Source: Bdellovibrionales bacterium
GTDB taxonomy: Bacteria > Bdellovibrionota > Bdellovibrionia > Bdellovibrionales > UBA1609
Assembly: GCA_965203095.1 (NCBI GenBank)
Contig: OZ241877.1
Location: 992,001 to 1,056,000 of the forward strand
DNA: 64,000 nucleotides
Direction: 5' to 3'
Shown here: in pieces, positions 39,441 through 55,793 of the stretch
Layout of the letters: every line of letters starts with the position of its first letter
Numbering within the stretch: the stretch's first letter is position 1
Notes under the pieces: model-generated
Database searches by the model: none
The model's input: only the letters and a program-made list of their open reading frames with translations
Told to the model about the DNA's origin: nothing
Position numbers and translations under genes: made by a program

Positions 39441-41345
39441 ATGGGCAAAATCTTGGGTATTGATTTGGGCACAACCAATTCTGTTGTCTCTATTATTGAA
39501 AATGGCCAGCCTAAAGTTTTAACCAACACAGAAGGAGCTTACACTACCCCTTCTGTTGTGGGTTTTGGCAAAAAAGGGGAGATTCTTGTAGGACAAATTG
39601 CCAAAAGGCAGGCGGTCAGCAATCCCATCAACACCATTTTTTCCTCTAAAAGATTTATTGGCCAACAATTTTCTGCAATTCGTGGGGAAGTTGACAGCTA
39701 CCCATTCAAAACTGTCAAAAAATCCAATAGTGAAAGTTGTGCTTTCCTTATCAACAATGAGGAGGTTTCTCCTGAAAAAATAGCCTCTCTCATTTTATCC
39801 AAGCTAAAAAAAGACGCTGAGGCTTACCTGGGTCAAGAGGTCAAAGAGGCTGTAATTACAGTCCCAGCTTACTTTAATGATCTTCAAAGGCAGGCTACAA
39901 AAGACGCTGGCAAAGCGGCCCGGCTGAATGTCAAAAGGCTTATCAATGAGCCTACTGCCGCGGCTTTAGCTTATGGCATGGATAAAAAGGAAAATCGGTT
40001 GGTGGCTGTTTTTGACTTTGGTGGTGGCACTTTTGACATTTCTATTTTGGATATTAACGACAAACTTTTAGAAGTGAAGGCCACAAATGGAAACACAAAA
40101 CTGGGAGGAGATGACTTTGATGAAGCCCTGTTAAATTGGTTAGCTGAAGAGTTTAAAAAAATGGAAGGCATTGACTTGAGGGAAGACAAAATGGCTTTGC
40201 AAAGGCTGAGGGAAGCGGCGGAGAAAGCTAAGATTGAATTGAGCGTTTCTCAAGAAGCAGTAGTCAATTTGCCTTTTATTACTGCGGGGGCCTCAGGAGC
40301 TAAACATTTAGACATTTCCTTAACTCGATCTAAATTTGATCAGTTAACAGAGCATTTAATTGAAAGTGCTTTAAAGCCTTGTCAGGTAGTTTTAAAAGAT
40401 GCTGGCATTACTACCAACGATATCCATGAGGTGATCATGGTTGGGGGGAGCACACGTATTCCCGCAGTTCAGGAGGCGGTTAAAAAATTTTTTAACAGAG
40501 ATCTAAATCAATCGGTTAACCCCGATCAAGTGGTAGCTATGGGGGCCGCTGTTCAGGCCGGGGTTTTGTCCAGCGAAGTTAAAGATATTTTACTTTTAGA
40601 TGTGACTCCTCTGTCCCTGGGGATAGAGACTTTAGGCGGTGTGATGACTAAACTCATCTCTAAGAACACAACCATCCCCACAAAAAAATCAGAGGTATTT
40701 TCCACTGCGGAAGACAATCAAAGCGTTGTGTCCATCCATGTTCTTCAAGGGGAAAGAGGCATGGCTAAAGATAACAAAACTTTAGGCCGTTTTGATTTGA
40801 GGGACATTCCTCCCGCCCCCAGAGGAGAACCTAAAATTGAAGTTTCTTTTGACATTGATTCCAATGGAATCATTCATGTTTCTGCTAAAAATCAAGCTAC
40901 AGGGAAAAGCCAAAACATTCGTATTGACAAACCCAGCCTCAATGAAGAGGAAATCAGCCACATGATTAAGTCGGCTCAAGTTTATGAGGAGCAAGATCGA
41001 AAAAGAAAAGAGATCATTAGCATAAAAAATGAGATGGATCAAATGATCTATCAGTCGGAAAAAATGATAAAAGAAAATAGCGATAAAATTTCTGATGACC
41101 TAAAAAAAGAATCAGAAAGTGCTATTACACAAGCCAAAGATTTTTTGAAGAAAGACGACTTGGAAGTGAACATGGATGAATTAAAAAAGCTGAAAGACAA
41201 AGTCAAACAACAGTTTCAAGCATTAGGGCAAGAAGTTTATAAAAAAAGTGCTCAGGAAAAAAGCCCGAAGGATCCTTCTCCAAAGAAAAAAAACAAAAAC
41301 GATGGAGAAACCATTAACGCAGACTATGAAAAGAAAGAGGATTGA
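39441..41345 (+). CDS. dnaK: Chaperone DnaK (Hsp70)
   Basis: [36 protein letters not shown] and LVDVTPL-like [13 protein letters not shown]. Confidence 0.98.
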
Positions 41346-41418
41346 GATTCTTCCTCAACAAACAATGAAGAAAAATCTTACAATATCAGTTAAAGCGGGC
41401 TTTTTTCATTAAAAAAAC

Positions 41419-41447
41419 TTGAAAAGCCCAACAGTTTTATATAAAAT
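41419..41447 (+). promoter_or_regulatory. Sigma70-type promoter of relA/spoT (leaderless arrangement)
   Basis: TTGAAA-N17-TAAAAT, then 6 nt, then GTG. Confidence 0.65.
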
Positions 41448-41453
41448 GTCTTT

Positions 41454-43652
41454 GTGGCACTTTTAAAACTTCCTTTAGAAAAATCCTCTACTATCACTAT
41501 AGAGGATTTAAAACTCAAGCTAAAAAGCCACAGCTCTAAAATCCAATGGGCTGAGGTTTTTAAAGCTTACAAATATGCTCAAAAAGCCCATAAAGGCCAA
41601 AAAAGACTCAGTGGAGAGCCTTATATCACCCACCCTTTGAGCGTGGCGGATATTCTTTTGGATTTGGGCATGGATCAAGAAAGCCTGATCACAGCTCTTC
41701 TTCATGATGTTGTGGAAGACACCAGCACTTCTCTTCAAGATATAGAAAAAGAATTTGGCCCCACCATAGCTTTTTTGTTGGATGGAGTCACCAAAATTTC
41801 CAGAATTAAATTTCGCAACATTTATCACAAACAAAGTGAGAACATTCGTAAAATGATTGTGGCTATGGGAAAAGATGTCCGGGTGATTTTAATTAAGTTA
41901 GCGGATAGACTTCATAACCTCAGAACTCTCCAATATATGCCCAAAGCTCGGCAAAGGGCCATAGCTAATGAAACTTTAGAAGTTTATACCCCTCTGGCTT
42001 CTCGTTTGGGCATGAATGAAATCAAGGTGGAAATGGAAGATCTGTCTTTTAGTTTTGCCCGGCCAGAGGAATTTACTGAACTGACAAAAAAAATGGCAAA
42101 ACTCAATAAAAATAAAAGCACTTATATAGAAAACACGGCTCGTATTTTAAAAAAGGATCTGCAAAGTCATGGTATTTGGAATTGTGAAGTTCAAGGTCGA
42201 TATAAAAACCTATATTCCATTTACCGCAAAATGCTTTATCAGAGCATTCCTTTTGAGGAGATACATGACATTGTGGCTTTTCGAATCTGTGTGGAGGAAG
42301 TGCATGAGTGCTATGAGGCTTTGGGTTTGACTCATGCCCTTTGGAAGCCGGTTCCTGGCCGATTTAAAGATTTTATTGCTATGCCTAAGAGGAATAACTA
42401 CCAGAGCCTTCATACTACTGTAATAGGGCCTGAAGGGCATCAAATTGAAATTCAAATACGGACACAGGATATGCAGATAATGGCAGAAAGAGGGGTGGCG
42501 GCCCATTGGATTTATAAACTGAAAGGACAAAAAGAGAAGATCAAAGAGAGTCATTTGTCTAAGTTTAACTGGCTAAAGGAGGTTTTGCTCTGGCATCAAA
42601 ATTCTGATGATTCAGAAGAGTTTTTAGAAAATGTCAAAGGAGATCTTTTTGAATCGGAGATTTATGTTTTTACTCCTGAGGGGGATATTAAAGAGTTTCC
42701 CAGTGGTGCCACTCCGGTAGACTTTGCTTATTCCGTTCATACTCAGTTAGGAGAGAGAGCTGTTGGTGCAAAAGTCAATGGCCGACAAGTTTCTTTAGAC
42801 TATCGTTTGAATAGTGGGGACACGGTAGAAGTTGTCACAACAAAAAAGCCCAAGCCATCTAAAGACTGGCTCAAAACCTGCGTGACCTCTAAAGCCCGAT
42901 CCAAAATAAAAAACTTTTTTAAAACAGAGGAGAGAAAAAAATCCCTTGAGATAGGTAAAAAAATGTTTGAAAAAGGTTGTCATCGTTTTAAAGTTTCTGA
43001 GAAATATATTTTATCACATGCCAGCTTTTCTGAATTTATGAAATCCAAAGGCTTAAATAAGAAAGAAGAGCTTTTTATAAGTTTAGGTTTTGGAAAAATC
43101 GTTTTTAAACAAATTTTAGAATATTTTGGAAAAAACAAACAAGGGGAGGCTTTAACCTCCTTAAGTGTCTCATTAAATACAGAGGAAAAAGACCCCTCCA
43201 CTTCTCCTTTAGAGATTGAGGGGGCGGATAATGTCATGGTTCATTTTGCCCGGTGTTGCTATCCGGTAGCAGGAGACCGTGTGAAAGCCTATGTAAGCCG
43301 AAAAAGAGGGATCGTGGTTCACAGGCAAGTATGCAAGGCTTTAGATCAGATATCCTCTGATCGTTTTATAGAAGTGAATTGGAAAAGCGATCAAAGCCAA
43401 AACAATGATTACACTATTTCTTTAAGCACAGTTTGTGCTGACAAGCCGGGAACTTTATCTAAGATCAGCTCTGCTTTTAATTTCTTTGATTTAAATATTA
43501 CCAATCTTAAAGTGAATCGGGCCGACTCTCTAAAGGTTTTTGTGGTTTTTGACACTAAAGTTAAAGGTTTAAGGCAGGCCAATCAACTGCTTGTCCGTTT
43601 ACGGCAAATTGACAATGTCTTGAGTGTTAAAAGGAAGACAGATTTTGATTAA
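41454..43652 (+). CDS. spoT: Bifunctional (p)ppGpp synthetase/hydrolase (long RSH)
   Basis: HD domain LLHDVVED, KLADRLHN, YQSLHT, EIQIRT; TGS domain VFTP..GATPVDFAY; CC motif; C-terminal ACT. Confidence 0.95.
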   Translation: MALLKLPLEKSSTITIEDLKLKLKSHSSKIQWAEVFKAYKYAQKAHKGQKRLSGEPYITHPLSVADILLDLGMDQESLITALLHDVVEDTSTSLQDIEKEFGPTIAFLLDGVTKISRIKFRNIYHKQSENIRKMIVAMGKDVRVILIKLADRLHNLRTLQYMPKARQRAIANETLEVYTPLASRLGMNEIKVEMEDLSFSFARPEEFTELTKKMAKLNKNKSTYIENTARILKKDLQSHGIWNCEVQGRYKNLYSIYRKMLYQSIPFEEIHDIVAFRICVEEVHECYEALGLTHALWKPVPGRFKDFIAMPKRNNYQSLHTTVIGPEGHQIEIQIRTQDMQIMAERGVAAHWIYKLKGQKEKIKESHLSKFNWLKEVLLWHQNSDDSEEFLENVKGDLFESEIYVFTPEGDIKEFPSGATPVDFAYSVHTQLGERAVGAKVNGRQVSLDYRLNSGDTVEVVTTKKPKPSKDWLKTCVTSKARSKIKNFFKTEERKKSLEIGKKMFEKGCHRFKVSEKYILSHASFSEFMKSKGLNKKEELFISLGFGKIVFKQILEYFGKNKQGEALTSLSVSLNTEEKDPSTSPLEIEGADNVMVHFARCCYPVAGDRVKAYVSRKRGIVVHRQVCKALDQISSDRFIEVNWKSDQSQNNDYTISLSTVCADKPGTLSKISSAFNFFDLNITNLKVNRADSLKVFVVFDTKVKGLRQANQLLVRLRQIDNVLSVKRKTDFD

Positions 43653-43716
43653 AGTTCCCGCAAAGCTTTTCAGCTGGCCCCCGGCAAGTGAGGTGAGGGA
43701 AAAAAGTGGACTCTTT

Positions 43717-44697
43717 TTAAGGTGTTTGATTTTTTAAGGCTTTTGTAAGTTTGGGGACAATATCAAACAGATCACCCACAATTCCATAAGAGCATTTTTT
43801 AAAAAAAGGAGCCGAAGGGTCTTTATTTATCACTACAACGACTCGGCTATTTTGCATTCCGGCCAAGTGCTGAATGGCTCCAGAAATGCCACAGGCAATA
43901 TACAATTTAGGTGAAACGGTTTTGCCCGTTTGCCCCACTTGCCGGCTATAAGCCTGCCAGCCGGCATCGGTGACGGCACGAGAGGCCCCTACAACTCCGC
44001 CTATAGTTTGAGCCAGCTCTTTTAACATTTTAAAATTTTCCCCATTCATCAGACCCCGGCCCCCAGAGACAATGATCTCTGCCTCACTCAGATCTTGAAC
44101 AGGCTTTTCCGGGCTTTTAAAACTTTTATGTGTGATAGGGTTTAGGGGCAATTTGAGATCTAAGGCTGAGGCTTGGGATCCTCCTTTTTTAAAAGCTCCT
44201 TTGAGCCGGCCGGCTGGAATGAGACAAAAAACAGGTTCTTGGCTTGAAACCTTAACTTCAAAATGCCCGACCAGCTTTCCCGCATAAAGAGGTTTAAAGG
44301 CATGAATCAATTCTTTTTTGAATTTTAGATCTTGAACTTCATTTAAAAAAGGAGCATTCAAAATGGCAGAAAGCCATGGGAAATAATCTTTATTTTTTAA
44401 TGTGGCTGTGGAGATTATGCAGTTTGCCGGTTCTTTTTCTAAATAAAGCTTTAAAGCGGTCCCATAAGCTTTGGGATTATAAAATTTGAGTTTTTCGGAA
44501 AAGAAAAAGTGCCGGACAGCAGTCGGTAAATTCTTTTCAGAAAAATTCTCCGGTCTCTCGCCTAAGGCCAAAGCAGAAACTTGAACAGAACCTTCTCCCT
44601 CAAAACAGGAGTCAGAAGTTTCAAAAAAACCCAATAGGTCCAAGTCAGAAGGCTTTAATCCTTCTTTAGAACTGTCTATAAGGATTAAAAGTTTCAT
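43717..44697 (-). CDS. etfA: Electron transfer flavoprotein alpha subunit
   Basis: IVSGGRG, GASRAVTDAGW, QVGQTGK and GISGAIQH. Confidence 0.96.
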   Translation of the reverse strand: MKLLILIDSSKEGLKPSDLDLLGFFETSDSCFEGEGSVQVSALALGERPENFSEKNLPTAVRHFFFSEKLKFYNPKAYGTALKLYLEKEPANCIISTATLKNKDYFPWLSAILNAPFLNEVQDLKFKKELIHAFKPLYAGKLVGHFEVKVSSQEPVFCLIPAGRLKGAFKKGGSQASALDLKLPLNPITHKSFKSPEKPVQDLSEAEIIVSGGRGLMNGENFKMLKELAQTIGGVVGASRAVTDAGWQAYSRQVGQTGKTVSPKLYIACGISGAIQHLAGMQNSRVVVVINKDPSAPFFKKCSYGIVGDLFDIVPKLTKALKNQTP

Positions 44698-45449
44698 AAA
44701 ATTTTTTCCTTTTCTTTTAAAATTTGGATCAGTTGAGCCACTTTCTCCTCACTGTTCCCTGGAATTATATAAGGAGCTTGTTTTTCCGGAGGAAGACTCA
44801 AGCTTTTAAGCCTTATTCTCTCTTCTTTTTTTATGTCCACCGGAAAGGAGCGAAAGGGCTTTTTTTTTGCTTTCATAATGCCTGGAAGTGAGGGATAGCC
44901 GGGCTGATTAAGCCCCTTGTCTGCTGAAAGAAGTAGGGGAGGAGTGGCGGTTAAACTCTCTTCCACAGCCTGCCCGCATTCTCTTACTAAGTGGAATAGG
45001 CCCTCTTGAAACTCCAGTTTATTTACATTGGTGACAAAGGGAAGATCTAAAAGCCCGGCGAGCATTTGAGGGACAGCAAAGTTGTTAGAATCTGTCGATA
45101 ACTTCCCACAAAAAATCAAAGACAGGCTAGGAATTTCAACAATTTTGTTTTTTAAAATTTGAGCAATGATCAAAGGATCTCTTAGATTTTGATCAACAAC
45201 AAGATGAAAAGCCTCATCTGCCCCAAGGGATAATGCAGTCATCAGTGCCTCTCTGGCTCGTTTTGGCCCTAAGGTGATGACAAAAAGTTTTCCTTGGAAT
45301 TGGCTTTTTAGTTTTAAAGCCTCTTCTAAAGCAAATTCATCATAAGGAGATATGACCCATTTGAGTAAGCTTTCATCCACTTCACCATTTTGAATTTGAA
45401 GATTCAGGCCGGTGTCAGGGACTTGTTTAATGGGGACAAGAATGTTCAT
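44694..45449 (-). CDS. etfB: Electron transfer flavoprotein beta subunit
   Basis: MNILVPIKQVPD, PYDEFALEEAL and SLPGIMKAKKKP. Start moved to ATG 45449. Confidence 0.95.
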   Translation of the reverse strand: MNILVPIKQVPDTGLNLQIQNGEVDESLLKWVISPYDEFALEEALKLKSQFQGKLFVITLGPKRAREALMTALSLGADEAFHLVVDQNLRDPLIIAQILKNKIVEIPSLSLIFCGKLSTDSNNFAVPQMLAGLLDLPFVTNVNKLEFQEGLFHLVRECGQAVEESLTATPPLLLSADKGLNQPGYPSLPGIMKAKKKPFRSFPVDIKKEERIRLKSLSLPPEKQAPYIIPGNSEEKVAQLIQILKEKEKIL

Positions 45450-45602
45450 CAATCTTGATTTATAAACCAGTTGAAGGCTAAAGGACAAGTTTCAGCTTAA
45501 AAAAATTGCCCATGTTCATGATTTCGCTGACAAAATTTAGTTAAACTTTTGTCCAAAGAGCATTCCATTTCGTGGAAAAAAGCCTGAGTCAGGCTGTTTT
45601 TA

Positions 45603-45632
45603 TTGTCTATTTTAGGATTTTTATGTTATAAT
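45603..45632 (+). promoter_or_regulatory. Promoter of nuclease-pilin cassette 1
   Basis: TTGTCT-N18-TATAAT with an extended -10 TG; conserved in cassette 2. Confidence 0.7.
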
Positions 45633-45705
45633 GTTTCTCAAAAGTGGTTGGTTTTTTACCTTAAAAACTGAAAATATGGCTTCTTAAAAAGATGGAGGAG
45701 AAGGG

Positions 45706-46548
45706 ATGAGTAAAACACCTACACCAGATGAAATCTGGAAAATTTTAAAAGAAATTGCTCTCAATCAAAAGGAGTGGGAAAAGAAATGGGAAAAGAAAAG
45801 TTTAGAAGAGGCTCGGCAAGAAAAGAAGAGGGCAGAGGAAGAGGCTCGGCAAGAAAAGAAGAGGGCAGAGGAAGAGGCTCGGCAAGAAAAGAAGAGGGCG
45901 GAAGCAGAGGCTCGGCAAGAAAAGAAGAGGGCAGAGGAAGAGGCTCGGCAAGAAAAGAAGAGGGCGGAAGCAGAGGCTCGGCAAGAAAAGAAGAGGGCAG
46001 AGGAAAAAGCACGGGAGGAAAAAGAATGGGCGGAGTGGAAAAAGAAAGACCAGAAAAAAATAGAGGAAATTCGCATTTTACAAAAAGAAGCAGAGTTGGA
46101 ATCAAAAAAAACGGAGAAGTTGCTTCATAAAGTAATTGGAGATTCTGGAAATCGCTGGGGGAAGTTAGGTGAAAACTTGGTTAAGGGCCAGTTGGCTCAG
46201 CGATTAAAAGAGAGAGGGATTAAAGTGGAAAGGGTAATTACCAATGCAAAAGGCCCTTTTTCAGAGTTTGATCTTATCGCTATCAATGGGAAGGAGGTTG
46301 TAGTTGTGGAAGTTAAAGCCACTTTAGATCCTTCTGATGTTAATGAATTTGAAGAAAATATTAAAAACTTTAAAACTTGGTGGCCAGAATTTAAAAACAA
46401 AACTCTTTATGGTGGAATGGCTTTTTTAATAAAATCTAATCGACAGGCGGATAGTTTAGCACAAAAACGAGGTTTTTTTGTGATTGAGGCGACTGGTGAT
46501 GTGATCTTTCAAAATGAAAAGGATTTTAAGCCCAGAGTCTTTTCTTAA
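45706..46548 (+). CDS. Coiled-coil VNTR + PD-(D/E)XK nuclease-like protein (DUF3782-like), copy 1
   Basis: GGAGG RBS; EIWKILKE N-terminus; coiled coil; GNRWGKLGE; EFDLIAINGKEVVVVEVK (D...ExK); FKPRVF C-terminus. Confidence 0.8.
   Translation: MSKTPTPDEIWKILKEIALNQKEWEKKWEKKSLEEARQEKKRAEEEARQEKKRAEEEARQEKKRAEAEARQEKKRAEEEARQEKKRAEAEARQEKKRAEEKAREEKEWAEWKKKDQKKIEEIRILQKEAELESKKTEKLLHKVIGDSGNRWGKLGENLVKGQLAQRLKERGIKVERVITNAKGPFSEFDLIAINGKEVVVVEVKATLDPSDVNEFEENIKNFKTWWPEFKNKTLYGGMAFLIKSNRQADSLAQKRGFFVIEATGDVIFQNEKDFKPRVFS
45805..46002 (+). repeat. 33-bp coding tandem repeat x6, (E/A)EARQEKKRAE
   Basis: gaagaggctcggcaagaaaagaagagggcagag units read directly. Confidence 0.95.
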
Positions 46549-46613
46549 TTTCTTTTAATTTGAGAGAGATTAAAGGGGGTTCACTATAAAGGAGAAAAAA
46601 GAGAGTTTAAACG

Positions 46614-47306
46614 ATGAGACCAGCTTTAAAGTTTTTTTATTCTTTTTTTCAATCAGAAAAAGGTTTTTCTTTAACGGAACTTTTAGTTGTTGTGGGCATT
46701 CTTGGGGTTCTTTCAGCTGTGGCTATTCCTACTTATAGCAAATACAAAATCGGTGTTTTACAGACCATTCAAAAATCAGAGCTTGTGGCTGTTTCCAGAG
46801 TCTTAGATCATGTTCATAATGTGGACGGTGGCTACCACCAAAAAATCTATGCGGCCGGCTATCGCCCCAGTAAAGTCATGAAGGTTAATGTTGGATTCAG
46901 ATACAACAAAACCGATCCCCTTTGTTGCTCCAGCCATCCTCAAAGTGCCACGGGAGATTTTAGTTCTTATCTCACTTTATCCTCAGATGTTTATATCGCC
47001 GGAAAAATAGATTCCTCGGTTTCATCATCTGATATATGTGGCCATGCCGATGGCAACTGCACAGAGAAAGGAAACCAGGGACGAACAAAGAACAGTCATC
47101 TAAGCCCCAGCGGTAGTGACTCCAACTGTGCTACTGCTTTTCACAACAAAGCCATTGAATGTGCTTGCAACAGTTTTGTAGTTTTATCGGGAACCAGACC
47201 AAACCCCAAATCCGGGGGGGCCTTATACAGAGCCTATATCAATCAAGACGGCCTGCTTTGCAAAGGGCTATCCTCAACCAAATCAGCCCCCCTAAAACCT
47301 TTTTAA
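46614..47306 (+). CDS. Type IVa prepilin, variant 1
   Basis: KG|FSLTELLVVVGILGVLSAVAIP prepilin cleavage site with Glu+5; 8-Cys globular head. Confidence 0.92.
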   Translation: MRPALKFFYSFFQSEKGFSLTELLVVVGILGVLSAVAIPTYSKYKIGVLQTIQKSELVAVSRVLDHVHNVDGGYHQKIYAAGYRPSKVMKVNVGFRYNKTDPLCCSSHPQSATGDFSSYLTLSSDVYIAGKIDSSVSSSDICGHADGNCTEKGNQGRTKNSHLSPSGSDSNCATAFHNKAIECACNSFVVLSGTRPNPKSGGALYRAYINQDGLLCKGLSSTKSAPLKPF

Positions 47307-47533
47307 CAAAACCTTTCCACACACTATTAAATTTATATCCTAATATCACAAACTAAAGTCTTGAATGTAGTGACCCAAGCCCCTCGAAAACCCTTGATAA
47401 TACTGGATTCTTGATCACAAAATACGGAAGTTAGGTGAATTATCCCATTCTTATTACTGATAATTTGCCCTATCCTTGAAACCTGAAAACTCCAACAAGA
47501 TGGGTATAAGTTTCTCTGATCAATCCATTTTTA

Positions 47534-47563
47534 TTGTCTATTTTAGGATTTTTATGCTATAAT
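47534..47563 (+). promoter_or_regulatory. Promoter of nuclease-pilin cassette 2
   Basis: TTGTCT-N18-TATAAT with an extended -10 TG; one mismatch to the cassette 1 promoter. Confidence 0.7.
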
Positions 47564-47634
47564 ATCTTAGAGTTTTTGGTTTTTTTATCTAAAAACGGAG
47601 AAATTGGCTTTTTGAAAAAATTGGAGGAGAAGGG

Positions 47635-48390
47635 ATGAGTAAAACACCTACACCAGATGAAATCTGGAAAATTTTAAAAGAAATTGCTCTCAATCAAAAG
47701 GAGTGGGAAAAGAAATGGGAAAAGAAATGGGAAAAGAAAAGTTTAGAAGAGGCTCGGCAAGAAAAGAAGAGGGCAGAGGAAGAGGCTCGGCAAGAAAAGA
47801 AGAGGGCAGAGGAAGAGGCTCGGCAAGAAAAGAAGAGGGCAGAGGAAAAAGCACGGGAGGAAAAAGAATGGGCGGAGTGGAAAAAGAAAGACCAGAAAAA
47901 AATAGAGGAAATTCGCATTTTACAAAAAGAGGCAGAGCTGGAATCAAAAAAAACGGAGAAGTTGCTTCATAAAGTAATTGGAGATTCTGGAAATCGCTGG
48001 GGGAAGTTAGGTGAAAACTTGGTTAAGGGCCAGTTGGCTCAGCGATTAAAAGAGAGAGGGATTAAAGTGGAAAGGGTAATTACCAATGCAAAAGGCCCTT
48101 TTTCAGAGTTTGATCTTATCGCTATCAATGGGAAGGAGGTTGTAGTTGTGGAAGTTAAAGCCACTTTAGATCCTTCTGATGTTAATGAATTTGAAGAAAA
48201 TATTAAAAACTTTAAAACTTGGTGGCCAGAATTTAAAAACAAAACTCTTTATGGTGGAATGGCTTTTTTAATAAAATCTAATCGACAGGCGGATAGTTTA
48301 GCACAAAAACGAGGTTTTTTTGTGATTGAGGCGACTGGTGATGTGATCTTTCAAAATGAAAAGGATTTTAAGCCCAGAGTCTTTTCTTAA
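47635..48390 (+). CDS. Coiled-coil VNTR + PD-(D/E)XK nuclease-like protein (DUF3782-like), copy 2
   Basis: Identical to copy 1 except WEKK x3 (vs x2) and 11-aa repeat x3 (vs x6). Confidence 0.8.
   Translation: MSKTPTPDEIWKILKEIALNQKEWEKKWEKKWEKKSLEEARQEKKRAEEEARQEKKRAEEEARQEKKRAEEKAREEKEWAEWKKKDQKKIEEIRILQKEAELESKKTEKLLHKVIGDSGNRWGKLGENLVKGQLAQRLKERGIKVERVITNAKGPFSEFDLIAINGKEVVVVEVKATLDPSDVNEFEENIKNFKTWWPEFKNKTLYGGMAFLIKSNRQADSLAQKRGFFVIEATGDVIFQNEKDFKPRVFS
47704..47844 (+). repeat. 12-bp repeat x3 (WEKK) and 33-bp repeat x3
   Basis: tgggaaaagaaa x3 at 47704..47739; 33-mer x3 at 47746..47844. Confidence 0.95.
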
Positions 48391-48455
48391 TTTCTTTTAA
48401 TTTGAGAGAGATTAAAGGGGGTTCACTATAAAGGAGAAAAAAGAGAGTTTAAACG

Positions 48456-49139
48456 ATGAGACCAGCTTTAAAGTTTTTTTATTCTTTTTTTCAATCAGAA
48501 AAAGGTTTTTCTTTAACGGAACTTTTAGTTGTTGTGGGCATTCTTGGGGTTCTTTCAGCTGTGGCTATTCCTACTTATAGCAAATACAAAATCGGTGTTT
48601 TACAGACCATTCAAAAATCAGAGCTTGTGGCTGTTTCTAAATATTTATATCATACTCATAATGTGGACGGTGGCTATCATCAAAAAATTTGGGCAATGGG
48701 CTATCGCCCCAATAAAATAATGCAGACTCAAATTGGAATGGACTATGCCAGAGGTGTGGCCAGCCCCATCTGTTGCAATAAATTTCCTCAAGACGCTACA
48801 ACAGCAACAAACCGAGCGAGCAATTATTTCACCCTTACAAGCAATATTTATACCGTAACCCATGATGATTCATTTACTAATATTGAACAGATGTGCACAG
48901 GAGGAAAATGTGAGTTAAAATACTATAAGCACCATTCCCAATGGGCGATTAAACACTCCGGCCTTGCTGGCGATTGCTGGTCTGATTTCAACCAAAAATC
49001 AATTAAATGCACATGTGATACATTTATTTTACTTGCTACAAATAATATTAAGGGTAATATACCGAGGGCTTTCATGAATAACAAAGGGCTTATTTGCAAA
49101 TCTACAGGAAATATCACTACTAACATAAATAAATTTTGA
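48456..49139 (+). CDS. Type IVa prepilin, variant 2
   Basis: First 61 aa identical to variant 1; divergent head with the same eight cysteines. Confidence 0.92.
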   Translation: MRPALKFFYSFFQSEKGFSLTELLVVVGILGVLSAVAIPTYSKYKIGVLQTIQKSELVAVSKYLYHTHNVDGGYHQKIWAMGYRPNKIMQTQIGMDYARGVASPICCNKFPQDATTATNRASNYFTLTSNIYTVTHDDSFTNIEQMCTGGKCELKYYKHHSQWAIKHSGLAGDCWSDFNQKSIKCTCDTFILLATNNIKGNIPRAFMNNKGLICKSTGNITTNINKF

Positions 49140-49223
49140 TTATATTGCCGGTAAATTCAGAGATAAAGGAGAGTCAATTTAAGTTTTTAGAGTCTTTTAC
49201 CTTAAGGAGGCTTTATTTATCCA

Positions 49224-49895
49224 ATGAATATTTTGATTTATTTTTTGCAAAAAACTATCGGTCAAAAAATTGTTGTGGCCTTAACTGGACTGGGGCTTTG
49301 CCTGTTCCTCTTGATCCACATGGCCGGCAATTTACTGATTCTCTCCGGGCCTTCAGCTTATAACAAATACGCCTATAGCCTTCATGAATTTCCCTTATTT
49401 ATTCTGCTGGAGATGGGCTTAGCCCTTTTTTTTGCCGGACATATTTTGCTCAGCTTTTTGCTCTTGATGAAAAACAAAAAAGCCCGCGGATCAGAGGATT
49501 ATAAAATATTCCATAGTAGTGGGGGGAAAGCCAGCCCTTGGAGACACCGTTTTTTATGGTTTCAAGCTGGCGGACTGTTTATTTTTTTGATCCTTCATCT
49601 GCTGTCTTTTAAATTTGGCCCCTATTATGAGACTCAACTGGAAGGGCAAGTGGTTCGGGATATTTATAGATTGGTTGTGGAAAATTTTAAAAAACCCATT
49701 TACCCTATTGGCTACAGTCTGGTCCTTTTGATTTTATTTGTCCATCTGTTGAGGGGCTTTTCCGCCAGCTTTAAAAGTTTAGGGCTGTCTCGTCCCATCT
49801 ATGTTTTTTTTGTGGAAAAGCTGGCTTGGCTGTTGGCTTTAGTCGTCACCTTTGGCTTTCTTGCTCCAATATGGTATGTTTTTATTTGGATATAA
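49224..49895 (+). CDS. sdhC: Succinate dehydrogenase/fumarate reductase cytochrome b subunit
   Basis: IGQKIVVALTG, HMAGNL, five transmembrane helices with His ligands; AGGAGG RBS. Confidence 0.93.
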   Translation: MNILIYFLQKTIGQKIVVALTGLGLCLFLLIHMAGNLLILSGPSAYNKYAYSLHEFPLFILLEMGLALFFAGHILLSFLLLMKNKKARGSEDYKIFHSSGGKASPWRHRFLWFQAGGLFIFLILHLLSFKFGPYYETQLEGQVVRDIYRLVVENFKKPIYPIGYSLVLLILFVHLLRGFSASFKSLGLSRPIYVFFVEKLAWLLALVVTFGFLAPIWYVFIWI

Positions 49896-49957
49896 TATGG
49901 TTTTTGTTGGGAAAACCTATTAGACAGTCTTTCGTGAAAAAGCTTAGAATATAAAAC

Positions 49958-51895
49958 ATGATAAAAGAAAATTTTTTTAATAAGCACAGTGCTCGCATTC
50001 CTGAAGGCCCTATAGAGGACAAGTGGGACAATGCCAAGCTCTCCTATAAGTTAATCAACCCTGCAAACAGGAAAAAGTTTGATGTGATTGTTGTAGGTGC
50101 TGGTTTGGCCGGTGCTTCTGCAGTGGCCAGCTTAGGGGAAATGGATTACCGAGTAAAGCTCTTTGTTTTGCATGACAGCCCTCGCCGGGCCCATTCCATA
50201 TCCGCTCAAGGAGGAATTAACGCGGCTAAAAATTATCAAAATGATGGAGATTCCATTCAAAGATTGTTTTATGACACTATTAAAGGGGGGGATTTCAGAT
50301 CTCGTGAAGCCAATGTTTTCCGTTTAGCTCAGCTTTCGGGAAACATTATCGATCAATGTGTAGCTCAAGGGGTCCCTTTTGCCAGAGAGTATGGAGGAAT
50401 GTTGGCCAACCGTTCTTTTGGCGGGGCACAAGTGTCCCGAACTTTTTATGCCAGAGGCCAAACAGGACAACAACTTCTTTTAGGAGCTTACGGTGCACTT
50501 TTAAAACAGGTTCAGGCCGGCACTGTTCAACTTTTTACTCACCATGAAATGCTTAATCTTGTTGTTTATAAAGGTCAAGCCCAAGGGATTGTGACTCGCG
50601 ATCTCCTCACTGGAAAAATCAAAAGCTTTAGAGCACAGGCAGTGGTTTTATGCACAGGGGGTTATAGTAATGTTTTTTACCTTTCCACCAATGCGATGAA
50701 CTCCAATGTCACGGCCATCTGGCGATCTCACAAAAAAGGGGCTTTGTTTGCCAATCCCTCTTTTGTTCAGATTCATCCCACTTGTATCCCTCAAAGCGGG
50801 GATCATCAATCCAAACTGACCTTAATGTCTGAGTCTTTAAGAAATGATGGGCGAGTTTGGGTCCCTCTTAAAAAAGGAGATAACCGTAGGGCTGAGAATA
50901 TTCCGGAAGAGGAGAGAGATTATTACTTAGAAAGAATTTACCCTGCTTTTGGAAACCTTGTCCCCAGGGATGTAGCTTCTCGTCAAGCCAAGTTTCAAGT
51001 GGATAAAGGACATGGTGTGGGGGCCACCAGCCAAGCAGTATATTTGGATTTTGCACAAGTTTTGAGGGAAAAAGGCCAAAAAGCCATAGCAGAAAAGTAT
51101 GGCAATCTTTTCAGCATGTATCATCGTATCACTGGCGAAGATCCTTATAAAAAACCTATGAGAATTTATCCCGCTGTTCATTACACTATGGGCGGTTTGT
51201 GGGTGGATTACGATGGACAAAGCTCACTTAAGGGCCTATTTGTTTTAGGAGAGGCTAATTTTTCCGATCATGGGGCCAATCGGCTGGGAGCATCGGCTTT
51301 AATGCAGGGGCTGGCTGATGGTTATTTTATCCTTCCTTATAGCTTAAGTCATTTTTTAGCTCAAAGTGCTGGGTTGGAGTTTAAAAAGCAAGCTTTTAAA
51401 GAGGCCGAAGAGGAGAGTCAAGAGCATTTACAAAAGATTTTAAATTTAAAAGGTTCTCAAACAGTGGATCAAATTCATAAAAAATTAGGAAATCTTTTGT
51501 GGGAACATGTGGGGATGATTCGCTCTAAAGAGGGCTTAACAAAAGCTCAAGACCAGATCCTATCCTTGAGGCAGGAGTTTTGGAATGATATTTTTGTTCC
51601 CGGTGAGAAAAATTATAAAAATCAAGAGTTAGAAAAAGCTGGCCGAGTGGCTGATTTTTTAGAGTTAGGAGAGTTAATGGCCATTGATGCTTTAAAAAGA
51701 GAAGAGTCTTGTGGTTGTCATTTTCGTGTGGAGCACCAAACCCAAGATCATGAGGCTTTAAGAAATGATAAAAACTTTTCCCATGTTTCGGCTTGGGAAA
51801 TGCAAGAGTTCTCTTTTTCTCGCCTTTTATGGCAAGAGCATAGAGAACAGCTTTTATTTAAAAAAGCACAACCCGGCCAAAGGAATTACAAATAG
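49958..51895 (+). CDS. sdhA: Succinate dehydrogenase/fumarate reductase flavoprotein
   Basis: [38 protein letters not shown] and REESCGCH. Confidence 0.96.
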
Positions 51896-51921
51896 AGGCT
51901 CAAAAGCTCTGAAGGGGAATC

Positions 51922-52671
51922 ATGAACTTTACATTAAAAATATGGAGGCAAAAAGGGCCAAAGGCCAAAGGCTTTTTTCAAACAGTTCTTGTGGAGGATA
52001 TTTCACCTGACATGTCTTTTTTAGAGATGTTGGATCAAGTCAACCACAATATGATTTTAAAGCGGGAAGAACCGGTGGCCTTTGATCATGACTGTCGAGA
52101 GGGGATTTGCGGGACTTGTGGTCTGGTAATTAATGGAGAGCCTCATGGCCCGCAAAAAGCAGTGGCGACCTGTCAACTGTATATGAGACAGTTTAAAGAT
52201 CAAACTGAAATTTGCATTGAGCCTTTCAAGGCCAAAGCCTTTCCCATCATTAAGGATCTGATTGTGGATCGTTCCAGCTTGGATCGTATTCAAAAGGAGG
52301 GAGGCTACATTTCTGTCCGGACAGGGAGTGCCCCCTCAGCCAACGCGATTCCTATTTCTAAAAAACAGGCTGGCGAGGCTTTTTCTTCAGCTCTTTGCAT
52401 TGGTTGTGGAGCTTGCGTGGCCAGCTGTAAAAATGCCTCTGCCAGCCTGTTCACCGCGGCGAGAATATTTCACTTTTCTAAACTGCCTCAAGGGCAAGCA
52501 GAACAAGAGGATCGTGTTTTAAATATGACAGCTCAAATGGATAAAGAGGGTTTTGGTGCTTGTTCGCATGCGGGAACTTGCTCCTCAGTTTGTCCAAAAG
52601 AGATTCGATTAGAGACTATTGCTGAAATGAATCGACTTTGGAGAAAATCCCTTCTTAAAAGACAAAACTAA
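51922..52671 (+). CDS. sdhB: Succinate dehydrogenase/fumarate reductase iron-sulfur subunit
   Basis: CREGICGTC, CIGCGACVASC and CSHAGTCSSVCP. Confidence 0.96.
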   Translation: MNFTLKIWRQKGPKAKGFFQTVLVEDISPDMSFLEMLDQVNHNMILKREEPVAFDHDCREGICGTCGLVINGEPHGPQKAVATCQLYMRQFKDQTEICIEPFKAKAFPIIKDLIVDRSSLDRIQKEGGYISVRTGSAPSANAIPISKKQAGEAFSSALCIGCGACVASCKNASASLFTAARIFHFSKLPQGQAEQEDRVLNMTAQMDKEGFGACSHAGTCSSVCPKEIRLETIAEMNRLWRKSLLKRQN

Positions 52672-52703
52672 AAAAGGTCTCATCAGACAATGAGACCTTT
52701 TTT
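52670..52703. terminator. Bidirectional intrinsic terminator
   Basis: AAAAAAGGTCTCAT-cagaca-ATGAGACCTTTTTT between convergent genes. Confidence 0.9.
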
Positions 52704-52722
52704 AAATCAAAAAATCAAATTA

Positions 52723-52911
52723 TTATCTTTTTTTACGCCCTGCCTTTTTTCTTCCGGTTTTTCTGCGAGTCACTTTTTTGCGTCCCGCCTTTTTTCTTCC
52801 GGTTTTTCTGCGAGTCACTTTTTTGCGTCCCGCCTTTTTTCTTCCGGCTTTTTTACGGGTCACTTTTTTGCGTCCCGCCTTTTTTCTTCCGGCTTTCTTT
52901 TTTGCAGGCAT
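52723..52911 (-). CDS. Histone H1-like/protamine-like Lys/Arg-rich repeat protein
   Basis: AGGAGG RBS; MPAK followed by 11 pentapeptides (KKAGR/KKVTR/RKTGR); 37 of 62 residues are basic; followed by a terminator. Confidence 0.85.
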   Translation of the reverse strand: MPAKKKAGRKKAGRKKVTRKKAGRKKAGRKKVTRRKTGRKKAGRKKVTRRKTGRKKAGRKKR

Positions 52912-53074
52912 AGTTAACCTCCTGTTGTTTTTTTAGCTGAAGAATAACAACTTCAGCTTTTACTTTTTTAGTGTTGACTCAAAAAACCTCCCCGTCAAAT
53001 CTTTTTTTAATTATTTTTAATTTTTTTTCAATTTAAGCCTTTATGGAAAGTTTTTTGCTAATACATTTATTAGG

Positions 53075-53803
53075 ATGCTGATAGCCATTCAAACTGTGTT
53101 TTTTGGATTTTTATCTCGAAATCTTATCAAAGAGATGTTTTTTCTCCATCTGATAACTCAAAATGGGAGGCGGATTTTAGAGTTTTTCCTTCTTTTTTAT
53201 TTTTTATTTGTGTTTCTTCTTCAAAAAAGCTTGGTTTTTTCTCTTTTTCTGTTTCTCATACCTTTGATTTTTACCCTGATATTGTTTATTTTCTTAAAAA
53301 AACAAGAGGAAAAGAATTTCTTGTCCCAGCTCTGTTCTCTTCTTCTTCCTTTAGAATCTCAAATGAAATCAGGTATTAGTTTTATCAATGGTTGGCAAAA
53401 AGCCCAAGCAGAGCTGAAATCAGAAAAAATAAGAACCAAGGTTCAAAATATTACTGAGATTTTAAAATTTCAACAAAAATTCCATTATCCAGACAAAGAT
53501 GTTGAAAATTTTGTTCAAGATCTTCGTCTCATCCATCAAAGTGCTCATCCTTTGCAAAAATTAAAACATTTGAAGAGAAAAGTAAAAATTGAACAGTCAT
53601 TTCAAATCAAATCCAAAAGAGCTCTTCTTCAAATTCGAATCCAATCTGGCATTTTAAGCCTCTTTTATTTTGGACTTTTGGCTTGGACGGTCACAGCTCA
53701 TTCTGGCAAATACATTCATTTGATAGCTTTTTCATTTATTTTGTTTTTTTCTGGTTTGTTATGGATTTTTCAAACAGGGAGGAAAATGAAATGGTCTGTT
53801 TAG
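53075..53803 (+). CDS. TadB/GspF-like inner membrane protein
   Basis: Transmembrane segments, cytoplasmic QMKSGISF helix and QIRIQSGIL followed by two transmembrane segments; the similarity is weak. Confidence 0.5.
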   Translation: MLIAIQTVFFGFLSRNLIKEMFFLHLITQNGRRILEFFLLFYFLFVFLLQKSLVFSLFLFLIPLIFTLILFIFLKKQEEKNFLSQLCSLLLPLESQMKSGISFINGWQKAQAELKSEKIRTKVQNITEILKFQQKFHYPDKDVENFVQDLRLIHQSAHPLQKLKHLKRKVKIEQSFQIKSKRALLQIRIQSGILSLFYFGLLAWTVTAHSGKYIHLIAFSFILFFSGLLWIFQTGRKMKWSV

Positions 53804-54222
53804 CACCACCGTTAAAAGCAGTTTTAGAGATTCGCCTTCATATTGAAAATGGCGTTTCTGTCTCGCAAGCCATTCGTATTTATTCTCAAAGGAATGTGTT
53901 TGAGCCTTTTGCTAAGGATTTAGGGCTTTGGCTTTTTGCCCAGGAGACGGGAAAAAGCTGTCCAGCAAAAAGTTTCAATACTTTTTACAGAAAACGGCTT
54001 ATCGATATTTTAACTTGTGGTTTGCAAGGAGAACCTATTTTGTCAGCACTTTGTGATTTGGAAAAAGATCTGATTTTTGCTGTGAATGAGGATATCGAGC
54101 AACATTTACAGAAATTGCCTTTGCTCAGTTTGATTCCCTTAATGTTGTTGGAATTTCCTGCTTTTTTTCTGCTTTTAGTTGGCCCTTTGCTTTTGAATCT
54201 TTTGTCGGCTCTGCAAAATTAA
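53791..54222 (+). CDS. TadC/GspF-like protein
   Basis: IENGVSV, GEPILSAL and LIPLMLLEFPAFFLLLVGP (TadC-like terminal helix). Start moved to ATG 53791. Confidence 0.55.
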   Translation: MVCLAPPLKAVLEIRLHIENGVSVSQAIRIYSQRNVFEPFAKDLGLWLFAQETGKSCPAKSFNTFYRKRLIDILTCGLQGEPILSALCDLEKDLIFAVNEDIEQHLQKLPLLSLIPLMLLEFPAFFLLLVGPLLLNLLSALQN

Positions 54223-54235
54223 AAAAGGATAACTT

Positions 54236-54622
54236 ATGTCATCTCTAAAAATTTTTTGGAAAAGCAGTTTATTTTTTTTCTTTTTTTTCAGCTCCCCTTG
54301 TCCGGCAGAGTTTTTGGATCGCATTCTCCGATCAGAAACCATAGAGACTTTGACGCTAAATATCAAAAAGCAAGAACAGGATATGTTTTTGAATAAGCTT
54401 TGTGAAAAGCAAAAAGCCAGCAAAAAAGCTCCAATAGCTTGTTATGAGCTGGATTTATCGGGAGATAATTGGTGTTTGAGCTTGAAAATAGAAGATTTTA
54501 GCCTTGAAAGCTTGAATAAAGCTCTCAAGTCTTCTTTTTTATCTTCCACTTGTCGCAAGTATTTGAAAGAGAAACAAAAAATTTTGATTTATAGAGAAAA
54601 GGATCTTCTTTTGCTGAAATAA
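54236..54622 (+). CDS. Hypothetical exported protein
   Basis: AAGGA RBS, signal-like N-terminus and several cysteines. Confidence 0.55.
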   Translation: MSSLKIFWKSSLFFFFFFSSPCPAEFLDRILRSETIETLTLNIKKQEQDMFLNKLCEKQKASKKAPIACYELDLSGDNWCLSLKIEDFSLESLNKALKSSFLSSTCRKYLKEKQKILIYREKDLLLLK

Positions 54623-54641
54623 AAAAACTATTGGACAAGTA

Positions 54642-55793
54642 GTGGGCCTATCCCTTAAAAAAAGCAGGATGCCCTTTAAAATTAAAGTCCCTGCCAAAAG
54701 GAATCTTTTGGCACAAGGCTTGCCTTATCAAATTCTTTTTTCTTTTAAAAAAGACTCTTCTAAACAGATTTTTAAAGCTTTGAGAAAAGACTTAAGAACT
54801 GGGGTTCAACAAGAGGTTTTAGTTAAAATCTTTTTAAAGGACAGTTCTTCTTTCCGGGAAGAGTTTGAGTCGCTTTCTCAAATATCTTCATCTTATTGTG
54901 TTCGTTTGATTGGTTTTGAAAGTTTTGCTGGAAAAAACAGTTTGATTTTAGAATACATTCCAGGGGTCAGTCTTTTTAAACTGATAGAGAGCTTTTCGCT
55001 CTCATCTGAAGAGATAGGGCATATTTTGGTTTCCATTTATAAAGGGCTTTTGGATTTGAACCGGCAGAACCTTTGCCATGGGGATCTCAGTTTGGACAAT
55101 GTGCTCATTGATGAGAAGGCTCATATTAAGCTTATCGATTTTGGAAAAGCCAATTATGAGCGAGGCACTCAAGGGACAGCTCCTTTTATGGCTCCGGAAA
55201 TTTTAAAAGGAGCACGAGCCAATTTCCTTTCCGACTTATATTCTTTAGGTGTTATAGAGACTTTACTTCGAACACCCTGCCCGCTCACTTCCCTAAAAGA
55301 TTTGAAGGCGGAAGATTTAAGTCAAAACAACCCTCTTTTATTTAAAGATCCAAAAAAAAGATTTTTTCCAGAGAGTTTAAAAAATCAGGATATATCTTTT
55401 GAACAGCTGAGATTTCTCAGCTATAAGGTTAAAGAGCTGTTGTCCCTTGCAGAATGTCGCCGACAGCCCACTTTAAAAAACTCTTGTTCGAAAAGGTCTG
55501 CTTTTTTTCCTGCTTTTGTGAAGAGTATGGTTTTTTTTCTTTTTTTGCTTTTTGCCGGTATGGCCAGCTCCCCGCCTTATATCTCTTACGGTTGGGTTAA
55601 AGTTTATACTAATGAATGGTTTGTTGTTCGTGTGGATGGTTTTCAATCTTACACACCTCTTGCTCTTCCTTTAAAACCGGGTTGGCGATTTATTGAATGG
55701 AGAAACCGTCAATCCCAAGGCATTAAAAAAATTTTTATATCTGAAGGAAAGGCTGTTTTTTTAAATGATCAAAGTTTTTTATCCGATAAATGA
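54642..55793 (+). CDS. Hanks-type Ser/Thr protein kinase, membrane-anchored
   Basis: VLVK, LILEY, HGDLSLDNV, LIDFG, GTAPFMAPE and SDLYSLG; transmembrane segment and short C-terminal domain. Confidence 0.88.
   Translation: MGLSLKKSRMPFKIKVPAKRNLLAQGLPYQILFSFKKDSSKQIFKALRKDLRTGVQQEVLVKIFLKDSSSFREEFESLSQISSSYCVRLIGFESFAGKNSLILEYIPGVSLFKLIESFSLSSEEIGHILVSIYKGLLDLNRQNLCHGDLSLDNVLIDEKAHIKLIDFGKANYERGTQGTAPFMAPEILKGARANFLSDLYSLGVIETLLRTPCPLTSLKDLKAEDLSQNNPLLFKDPKKRFFPESLKNQDISFEQLRFLSYKVKELLSLAECRRQPTLKNSCSKRSAFFPAFVKSMVFFLFLLFAGMASSPPYISYGWVKVYTNEWFVVRVDGFQSYTPLALPLKPGWRFIEWRNRQSQGIKKIFISEGKAVFLNDQSFLSDK

Follow-up and report, generated by a model that had tools for sequence, protein, structure and literature searches.

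Tandem nuclease–pilin gene pairs with a near-identical 5′ block in an uncultured member of the Bdellovibrionota

Two pilin genes with a common stalk and very different heads, each preceded by a gene for a predicted nuclease, raise the question whether the nuclease belongs to a dedicated device for exchanging pilin heads or has travelled with a duplicated segment. The genes lie in the window (the whole stretch of 64,000 nucleotides analysed here) between two genes which, from their translations, we take to be etfB (left flank, minus strand) and sdhC (right flank). The gap holds two tandem units, each in the order promoter, coiled-coil PD-(D/E)XK gene, type IV pilin gene; open reading frames and promoter-like sites bear out the preliminary description of two complete units. 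We consider it likely that an ordinary tandem duplication, reshaped by homologous recombination, produced this arrangement, with the nuclease as a passenger and no dedicated machine for swapping pilin tips.

Layout of the locus and support from reads

On the plus strand, unit 1 comprises a coiled-coil PD-(D/E)XK gene similar to DUF3782/DUF8196 proteins (45706..46548; 280 aa, with six 33-bp repeats; identified by ORF and homologues, its fold taken from the twin in unit 2) and a type IV pilin gene of an eight-cysteine DGGYH family (46614..47306; 230 aa), the 3′ end of which overlaps an IS1634 remnant. Unit 2, on the same strand, comprises a coiled-coil PD-(D/E)XK gene (47635..48390; 251 aa, the catalytic domain identical to copy 1; identified by ORF, conservation and predicted fold) and a second pilin gene of the same family (48456..49139; 227 aa); both pilins were recognised by ORF, profiles and motifs. 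Sigma-70-like promoters on the plus strand at 45603..45632 (unit 1) and 47534..47563 (unit 2), each with a 10/12 match and TG before the −10 element, are the two best such sites within 45400–49400, an interval in which the number of sites (n=10) is not above that of shuffles (8.5 ± 3.0). With both pilin genes complete and a promoter-like site in each unit, the claim that every unit has its own promoter, unlike silent pilS copies, appears sound, and the cell probably makes two pilin variants from two promoters. Among the runs listed as containing parts of the window none was of RNA, which carries no information on expression. Upstream of unit 1 lies the truncated left half of a MITE-like, genome-wide hairpin repeat (45521..45580, plus strand; BLASTN to C1:910082 and C1:1369410), longer copies of which are present elsewhere in the genome.

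In three related genomes (G002, G008, G009) etfB lies directly beside sdhC in divergent orientation; in G007 the gap contains an unrelated gene and in G005 it is rearranged. As this synteny shows, a two-gene segment, consisting of a self-contained PD-(D/E)XK gene, equipped with a promoter, and an accessory eight-cysteine pilin gene, was inserted into the etfB–sdhC gap in this lineage.

The tandem arrangement might be an artefact of assembly, either because two strain alleles were joined end to end or because both copies were given one block sequence; the source seems to be metagenomic, with parts of the window found in sponge and marine metagenome runs, and no contig reaches across the whole locus. 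Against this, in run X1, which may be the source sample, the contig of the shared block has a depth of 34, about the sum of the 15.6 and 21.4 of the two head contigs; exact contigs in X1 and X4 cover the unique junction from head 1 across the IS ends and spacer to promoter 2; and the copies differ in their leaders, in repeat numbers and at two SNPs. The assembly collapse considered in the preliminary description is not borne out by these depths, an artefact of either kind is very improbable, and the short-read contigs support two real block copies.

No recombinant or third head was present among the 23 loose ends of read contigs listed. In run X7, from a diverged strain of another study, the nuclease–pilin junction is kept, with 25 differences in 232 letters at a depth of 4; the joint 45804>47779 in the same run, supported by 31 letters within the 33-bp repeat, is no evidence of a deletion. 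In run X5, the flanks and the nuclease are covered and neither head is, at a depth of 2–5 that is too shallow to prove anything. A rearranged pilin locus in X4, suggested by a 1335-letter contig leaving at 48450 and another ending at 48389, was rejected, since four contig ends (48389, 48450, 49282 and 49772) fall exactly on T^TAA cut or fill-in positions; we take this pattern to be that of a proximity-ligation library, assuming the enzyme specificity.

The shared block, the heads and the origin of the duplication

The block, delimited by BLASTN and alignment, includes the ribosome-binding site, the whole nuclease gene, a 65-bp spacer and pilin codons 1–61, and extends from 45693 to 46795 (copy 1) and from 47622 to 48637 (copy 2), both on the plus strand. 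Over 1.0–1.1 kb the copies differ by two substitutions (46089 and 46096), both synonymous, by an additional 12-bp unit in unit 2, and by the number of 33-bp units, six in unit 1 versus three in unit 2; the described near-identity of about 1 kb, covering the nuclease gene and pilin codons 1–61, thus holds apart from these two SNPs and repeat-number changes, and it ends in codon 61, the third base of which is the first mismatch after the block (46796/48638). Homology between the units begins further upstream, at 45597 and 47528; the 5′ leaders are identical at only 76/97 positions, a point overlooked earlier. Divergence is stepwise, which had likewise been overlooked, from two SNPs in the block and 76/97 in the leader to a pS of 0.34 in pilin codons 62–95 and saturated synonymous sites from codon 96 to the end. 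The great difference in age between adjoining segments means that the pilin locus must, judging from the sequence, have undergone recombination anchored in its conserved 5′ part.

Both pilins have a class III signal peptide (G|F, E5) followed by a hydrophobic helix, score above the cut-offs of PF07963 and TIGR02532 and match solved pilins at their N-termini; two PilT-family genes are present in the genome. The heads are, as had been noted, heavily diverged (identity 36–37%), yet keep all eight cysteines and the HNVDGGYHQKI and GYRP motifs. In the head tree, the two heads are sisters (90/91, not starred) on branches of 0.77 and 1.26 versus 0.24–0.27 for three relatives. The head family has 55 representatives, none of them named. 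The dN/dS of the heads (codons 62–230), proposed as a check in the preliminary description, was obtained as about 0.4; it is unreliable because dS is saturated, and no positive selection is demonstrable. The pilin model (pLDDT 38) was too low for a fold search. A search of the genome contigs for loci related to pilin 2 gave a single weak unrelated locus, and metagenome contigs searched with the head alignment and with a degenerate stalk pattern gave no match.

The spacer between the units, also passed over earlier, consists of two IS ends on the plus strand. The first (47302..47435) is the right end of an IS1634-family element including its terminal inverted repeat; over 131 nt it shares 93.9% identity with intact copies, one of which was assigned to family NF033559. 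Abutting the last base of this IS1634 end is a right-end remnant of the IS630 family (47436..47511; about 81% identity to intact copies, family NF033545 for an intact copy). The left end of IS1634 is deleted, and 92 bp, the IS630 tail, separate the right end from the start of homology. The segment was then duplicated in tandem, a step that the two copies themselves display, and this duplication was probably, with somewhat better than an even chance, a long target duplication of IS1634, the right end of which survives between the copies. Target duplications of IS1634/IS1549 are reported to be long and variable, 8–514 bp (PMC2266710); in keeping with such an origin, the right end lies between the units and all four intact IS1634 copies in the genome are flanked by long direct repeats (1371, 1162, about 3350 and 85 bp). 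The likeness is incomplete, as repeats of up to 1.2–3.3 kb exceed that reported range, only part of the element survives at the locus, and the repeat is not demonstrably in contact with it. Against the IS1634 step, moreover, the remnant is 6% diverged and looks younger than the divergence of the leader (22%) and of the heads (saturated), and other IS1634-family elements have duplications of only 5–6 bp. The duplications of up to about 3.3 kb at IS1634 are a by-product of this analysis that may matter more than the pilin pair.

After duplication, gene conversion may have homogenised 45693–46795 and 47622–48637, or a diverged allele may have replaced one head by a crossover in the conserved stalk, or both; the stepwise divergence shows recombination as such, whichever of these routes it took. 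Recombination tracts would stop where homology stops, at the start of the head, and the nuclease would be a passenger which lengthens the shared homology; nothing shows that it triggers exchange.

The nuclease family and its linkage to pilins

Both nuclease genes encode DUF3782/DUF8196-like coiled-coil PD-(D/E)XK proteins, predicted from sequence and model to be nucleases. Among 52 rows, E127 is invariant, and D160, E173 and K175 are conserved in at least 90%. The predicted model of the unit 2 protein has a long N-terminal helix (7–118, mean pLDDT 86) which represents a coiled coil, and its closest folds are NucS/EndoMS and Hjc-like nucleases (NucS 2vld: Z 11.4, rmsd 2.7, 106 aligned; Foldseek E 8.5e-4); together with the conserved E/D/ExK residues this agrees with the fold first proposed from sequence. 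Hartmann et al. 2016 (PMC4786415) describe DUF3782 (PF12644) and DUF8196 (PF26618) as coiled-coil PD-(D/E)XK proteins. The window proteins share their N-terminal coiled coil and PD-(D/E)XK domain, and homologues bear these Pfam labels; the window proteins themselves score under the DUF3782 cut-off (20.9 versus 24.4 bits), with Hjc and NERD above cut-off. The local Pfam scan gave no match to PF26618, although all 120 homologues listed carry it as a precomputed annotation, and Atlas matches at 0.95 are named DUF8196. PADLOC profiles matched the locus only weakly (best E 0.0036); with the nuclease alignment, viral contigs gave no match and solved structures searched by sequence gave coiled-coil noise only. 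Literature searches found no published activity or pilin link for DUF3782/DUF8196 proteins.

The preliminary description regarded the nuclease-plus-stalk block as a dedicated handle, the linked nuclease starting head swapping between loci. In favour of this, the block shows very little variation and ends where the stalk passes into the head, the head branches are long and the nuclease–pilin link survives in the diverged strain of X7. What stands of the proposal is recombination anchored in the conserved 5′ part; nuclease-coupled swapping is not supported, as the nuclease family is scattered and BLASTN finds the block in exactly two copies in the genome, no further copy being followed by another head. 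Both are, in large part, outcomes that the preliminary description had named as refuting it. The family occurs in 24 of 109 genomes of the taxonomic family with 1–20 copies each. This genome (G000) has 13, of which three are directly upstream of a pilin and ten are not, which speaks against a nuclease dedicated to the pilin; other copies occupy duplicated blocks in which the accompanying gene is unnamed or encodes a serine protease. The closest relatives of the nuclease, in G000, G001, G005 and G007, are mostly beside unrelated genes, and the closest pilins in three congeners (G007, G002, G005), which are orthologous, have no adjoining nuclease. Further points against a dedicated handle are the absence of silent or truncated donors and of a third head among the contig rows listed, and that both genes are intact with promoters, so that a head swap between them would change little. 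We regard this reading as quite improbable. A cytoplasmic nuclease would not be expected to bind a membrane pilin.

A looser link is kept alive by a weak enrichment, at the level of the genus, of PD-(D/E)XK genes on the 5′ side of pilins. Of the 157 nucleases outside G000, 153 lack a pilin motif directly downstream, and none of the 115 outside the genus has one; direct co-oriented linkage was found for 4/157 versus 0.55 expected (p about 0.003). Within the genus, a pilin motif follows at ≤2 kb on the 3′ side of 8/55 nucleases (null 0.96) and of 9/81 Rpn-type PD-(D/E)XK genes (null 1.43), but of 0/61 control DUF4143 genes, the null being uniform and ignoring shared residence in variable islands, and the control being one family. 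Pilin-linked nucleases are polyphyletic (8 rows need 7 changes, against a mean of 7.7 after shuffling).

Solo PD-(D/E)XK genes (DUF3782/8196, Rpn) might act on neighbouring DNA by nicking or resolving it and increase recombination there, linked pilin loci diversifying faster and being kept by phage, prey or host selection. Such non-dedicated stimulation would accord with two unrelated PD-(D/E)XK families being enriched 5′ of pilins where a non-nuclease control is not, with a link that arose independently about seven times, with the conserved catalytic residues and modelled NucS/EndoMS- and Hjc-like fold, and with G009, where five dispersed cassettes carry an Rpn gene, a pilin stalk with a variable head and, downstream, a conserved gene, the flanks being for the most part 80–98% identical. 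However, the uniform null leaves shared residence in variable islands out of account, many Rpn matches are copies of one cassette, three DUF3782 matches are weak or truncated pilin-like motifs, and the lack of direct links outside the genus and the single control family also weigh against it; we consider it unlikely. A stronger version, in which such genes were repeatedly recruited 5′ of pilins in this small-genome, apparently sponge-associated genus as local triggers exchanging heads among paralogues or strains, is less likely still. Were the link causal, a widespread nuclease family that lacks characterisation would gain a function, and pilus variation would be seen to have a further, new route; were the local-trigger version true, the window would be an instance of undescribed nuclease-driven pilus diversification and provide a first function for DUF3782/8196. 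No description of nuclease–pilin coupling was found in the titles and abstract openings of the open-access literature searched.

Comparison with other systems of pilin variation

Pilin-head diversification is widespread in this family. Tandem or dispersed paralogues with a near-identical 5′ region and a diverged head, and with no nuclease found nearby, occur in G002 (58+79 nt shared, head 38%), G027 (121+240 nt, 57%), G105 (116–194 nt, heads 41–70%) and G008 (197+370 nt, 66%). They and the cassettes of G009 differ from the window pair in that their tracts are shorter or less identical and most lack this nuclease; no nuclease-free pilin pair examined matches the block length and identity of the window pair.

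In Neisseria pilE/pilS variation, a constant 5′ pilin end is joined to a variable head by recombination anchored in conserved sequence, and the window pair is alike in these respects. It differs in that it would comprise two complete promoter-bearing genes and two variants only instead of one expression locus, and in the much greater divergence of its heads, which would make exchange within them difficult. Silent 5′-truncated donors were not found, tblastn detecting complete pilin genes only in this genome (90% complete by markers). Palindromes of a pattern we take to be dRS3-like number 38 in the genome, with none in the window and no proximity to nucleases (p 0.55).

In the plasmid pilV shufflon, the Rci tyrosine recombinase joins variable C-terminal segments of the pilin to an N-terminus that stays constant. 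The window pair shares the constant N-terminus and variable C-terminal part; its repeat is, however, a direct one of 1 kb and not a set of short inverted sites, and both heads lie on the same strand in complete genes. No recombinase gene was recognised among the ORF translations of 40000–55000, and the clear tyrosine recombinase checked in the genome (C1:557915) is away from the locus. With the preferred reading of duplication and recombination, the locus illustrates cleanly how duplication driven by an IS may combine with homologous recombination to build a pilin repertoire in an uncultured lineage of Bdellovibrionota, a useful rather than surprising case.

Searches of the open-access literature, in the parts of the texts covered, found neither an account of pilins in Bdellovibrionota from sponges nor one of integrative elements that target pilA. 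One relative of interest in this respect is G017, in which integrase-linked cassettes replacing the pilA head form an array of integrative elements. The nuclease of the window lies beside 4/8 of its truncated pilin cassettes, which the Pfam-based count had overlooked and which speaks against the nuclease as a mere passenger. This array is closer in kind to the pilV/Rci shufflon than the window locus is and, although a by-product, may matter more than the pilin pair.

The two units and their divergence

As the preliminary description had stated, two nuclease-pilin units lie between etfB and sdhC, the first with a nuclease-like gene at 45706-46548 and a pilin at 46614-47306, the second with the corresponding genes at 47635-48390 and 48456-49139. 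The near-identical blocks (45693-46795 and 47622-48637) differ by two substitutions, both synonymous, plus 12-bp and 33-bp repeat-number changes; they stop inside the pilin, in codon 61, and the two heads that follow have retained all eight cysteines. A putative promoter, one 10/12 sigma-70-like site, precedes each unit. The leaders, outside the block, are alike at 76/97 positions; pilin codons 62-95 show a pS of 0.34 with 62% of amino acids identical, a share that is 30% over codons 96-230, where 9/11 fourfold sites differ. An insertion was followed by tandem duplication, and since the segments are of unequal age, recombination after the duplication is required as well. Judged from gene order, the 3.6-kb cassette is a lineage-specific insertion because three of five congeners examined have etfB and sdhC directly divergent; the gap holds an unrelated gene in G007, and G005 is rearranged.

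The source genome, G000, comprises 1.80 Mb (GC 38%, completeness 90% by markers); named homologues carry the labels Bdellovibrionales or Oligoflexia, and parts of the window were found in sponge and marine metagenome runs. Contigs (not raw reads) from four of the ten listed runs were compared with the window. In run X1, which may be the source sample, depth is 34 over the block and 15.6 and 21.4 over the heads, and exact contigs cross the inter-unit junction; both copies are therefore real. A collapse of the block, envisaged in the preliminary description, is thereby contradicted, and an assembly artefact is scarcely credible. Exact pieces of both heads and of the junction also occur in X4, a second sample from the same study. 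X7, from a different study, holds a diverged strain (depth 3-4.5 over these pieces) with 7 differences in 357 letters of pilin 1 and 14 in 376 of the nuclease; across the nuclease-pilin junction, 232 letters show 25 differences and 4 gaps. No third head was seen among the 23 contig loose ends listed, beyond which there are 121 more; contigs lose rare variants.

Origin of the tandem

Between the units lie an IS1634-family right end (47302-47435, 93.9% identical to intact copies) and an IS630-family tail (47436-47511). All four intact IS1634 copies of G000 (C1:173889-178550, 969961-974204, 1224243-1232868 and 1350868-1352969) stand between direct repeats of 1371, 1162, ~3350 and 85 bp abutting the IS ends. 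In G007, two of six intact copies have flanking repeats of at least 45 bp (54 and 289 bp), as does the only one in G009 (300 bp). The accessible part of PMC2266710 gives duplications of 8-514 bp for IS1634 and IS1549 and puts most family members at 5-6 bp, and that of PMC8024623 gives 6 bp; the G000 repeats reach six times the 514 bp of the former, and entire genes are duplicated. That IS1634 made the tandem is slightly the better bet, the cuts then falling in an IS630 tail 5′ of the promoter and beyond the pilin. Against this, 92 bp separate the IS end from the start of homology, the left IS end is missing, and the remnant seems younger than the divergence of leaders and heads.

The nuclease-like gene and its link to pilins

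The nuclease model (pLDDT 86) combines a helix of 112 residues with an alpha/beta domain, for which the fold comparison proposed earlier predicts a resemblance to NucS/EndoMS (Z 11.4, rmsd 2.7, 106 aligned), other best folds being AF1548 and Can2/Card1. Residues E127, D160, E173 and K175 are kept across 52 aligned rows. Among Pfam models, Hjc and NERD pass the cut-off and DUF3782 falls under it; homologues bear PF26618 (DUF8196), often with PF12644. DUF3782 is a coiled-coil stalk in a prokaryotic PD-(D/E)XK endonuclease family according to the accessible part of PMC4786415, which states no nuclease activity for the DUF3782 family. The family has 13 matches in G000, the majority with their own -10 box and ribosome-binding site as judged by eye, and the copies have varied neighbours; the preliminary description had held that scattering beside unrelated genes, with no pilin linkage, would refute its proposal. 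In two further pairs the co-duplicated neighbour is a serine protease or an unnamed 470-aa gene. Family-wide, 24/109 genomes carry the gene in up to 20 copies each, with dense pilin-free arrays in G044, G113, G031 and G009; at G044:C2:342000-401000 (L100-L103), ~19 near-identical DUF3782-like genes lie within 60 kb among other repeated genes and transposase-like ORFs.

The preliminary description had proposed that the linked nuclease might start the exchange of heads. The adjacency test took in 19 nuclease-bearing contigs of 17 near-complete genomes (G001, G005, G006, G011, G099, G044, G104 and G112 being left out), which hold 170 nucleases and 293 N-methylation motifs; the nucleases were listed by two queries, with one G002 copy absent and some contig sizes approximate. 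Seven nucleases lie directly upstream of and co-oriented with a motif (three in G000, two each in G007 and G009). Without G000, such links number 4/157 against 0.55 expected (p about 0.003), three of the four involving weak or truncated pilin-like motifs; within 1.5 kb in either orientation the count is 7 against 4.6 (p 0.19), and outside the genus 0/115 nucleases are directly upstream. In the 66-row nuclease tree the eight pilin-linked rows form no clade and need seven changes. Pilin paralogues of G002, G008, G027 and G105, at loci chosen because they hold such paralogues, have a constant 5′ end and a variable head, and a search of their surroundings found no nuclease of this kind; their shared tracts are, however, shorter or less identical than the window block. 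The nuclease is thus neither required nor a dedicated partner. Nuclease-started exchange is unsupported, and dedicated nuclease-driven head swapping is most improbable.

Within 2 kb 5′ of pilin motifs in five congeners, DUF3782-like genes (8/55 vs a null of 0.96) and Rpn PF04754 genes (9/81 vs 1.43) are enriched and DUF4143 is not (0/61 vs 0.96), the Rpn matches being mostly one cassette (five copies in G009, two in G007). This modest nuclease-pilin enrichment persists unexplained; joint residence in variable islands could cause it, and a non-dedicated stimulation of recombination by PD-(D/E)XK genes is unlikely, if less so than a dedicated role. The nuclease is probably a passenger of ordinary duplication and recombination. 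Dispersed cassettes (G009 L181-L185; G007 L046, L047; G000:C1:559591-561493; G001 L048) begin with an Rpn-type PD-(D/E)XK gene or, in its place, a DUF3782 gene or an integrase, followed by a constant-start variable-head pilin and a conserved ~140-aa gene.

Pilin variation and related loci

The cysteine-rich DGGYH pilins, with 55 representatives at 50% clustering, occur in 8/109 genomes, every one in this genus. The nuclease is absent beside the closest relatives of the window pilins, in G007, G002 and G005, which are single genes in differing neighbourhoods, and the two window heads are sisters on long branches (90/91, not starred). Conversion and/or allele import may have acted, with tract ends fixed where homology is lost; the two variants would be co-expressed, and phage, prey or host might be the selecting agents.

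The pilE/pilS type of variation uses silent donors, and shufflons use a recombinase and inversions. The window locus is similar in outcome to pilin variation by recombination over a constant stalk. Having no silent donors (no truncated donor copies were found in G000), it is no pilE/pilS system, and with neither recombinase nor inversions it is no shufflon. No published description of nuclease-pilin coupling was found in titles and the starts of abstracts, and the locus is real but ordinary.

A better candidate for pilin swapping than the window locus is the array at G017:C1:411277-506779 (L207-L212, L193-L201), with one complete pilA and eight copies lacking the first 21-23 codons. The truncated copies, in both orientations, all start at one short core within the gene; one is 99% identical to the complete pilA and the rest 52-56%. 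A convergent tyrosine integrase lies 3′ of 7/9 pilA copies, and a nuclease of the DUF3782-like family divergently adjoins 4/8 truncated cassettes. The array looks like stacked integrative elements inserting into pilA, each with a replacement head; no description of such pilA-targeting elements was found, again in titles and the starts of abstracts.

Other repeats occur in G000. The entire contig C2 (17,191 bp) is a tandem array of a ~1.1-kb unit at 98-99% identity, and 45-bp tandem repeats lie between sdhB and the following gene (window 52729-52911). Tandem arrays of a 319-323 aa family with signal-peptide-like starts (~88-92% identity) are found at C1:204081-208586, 512092-517540 and 1593382-1595648, and several multicopy 800-950 aa pilin-motif proteins with partly common blocks at C1:188827-191902, 472328-475870 and 977976-981021. 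A 2.2-kb tandem duplication (C1:1728325-1732723, 99.96% identical) takes in the start of a gene that we take from its translation to be proS-like, and tRNA-Ile(GAT) stands three times in tandem at C1:1739312-1739573, the third one shortened.
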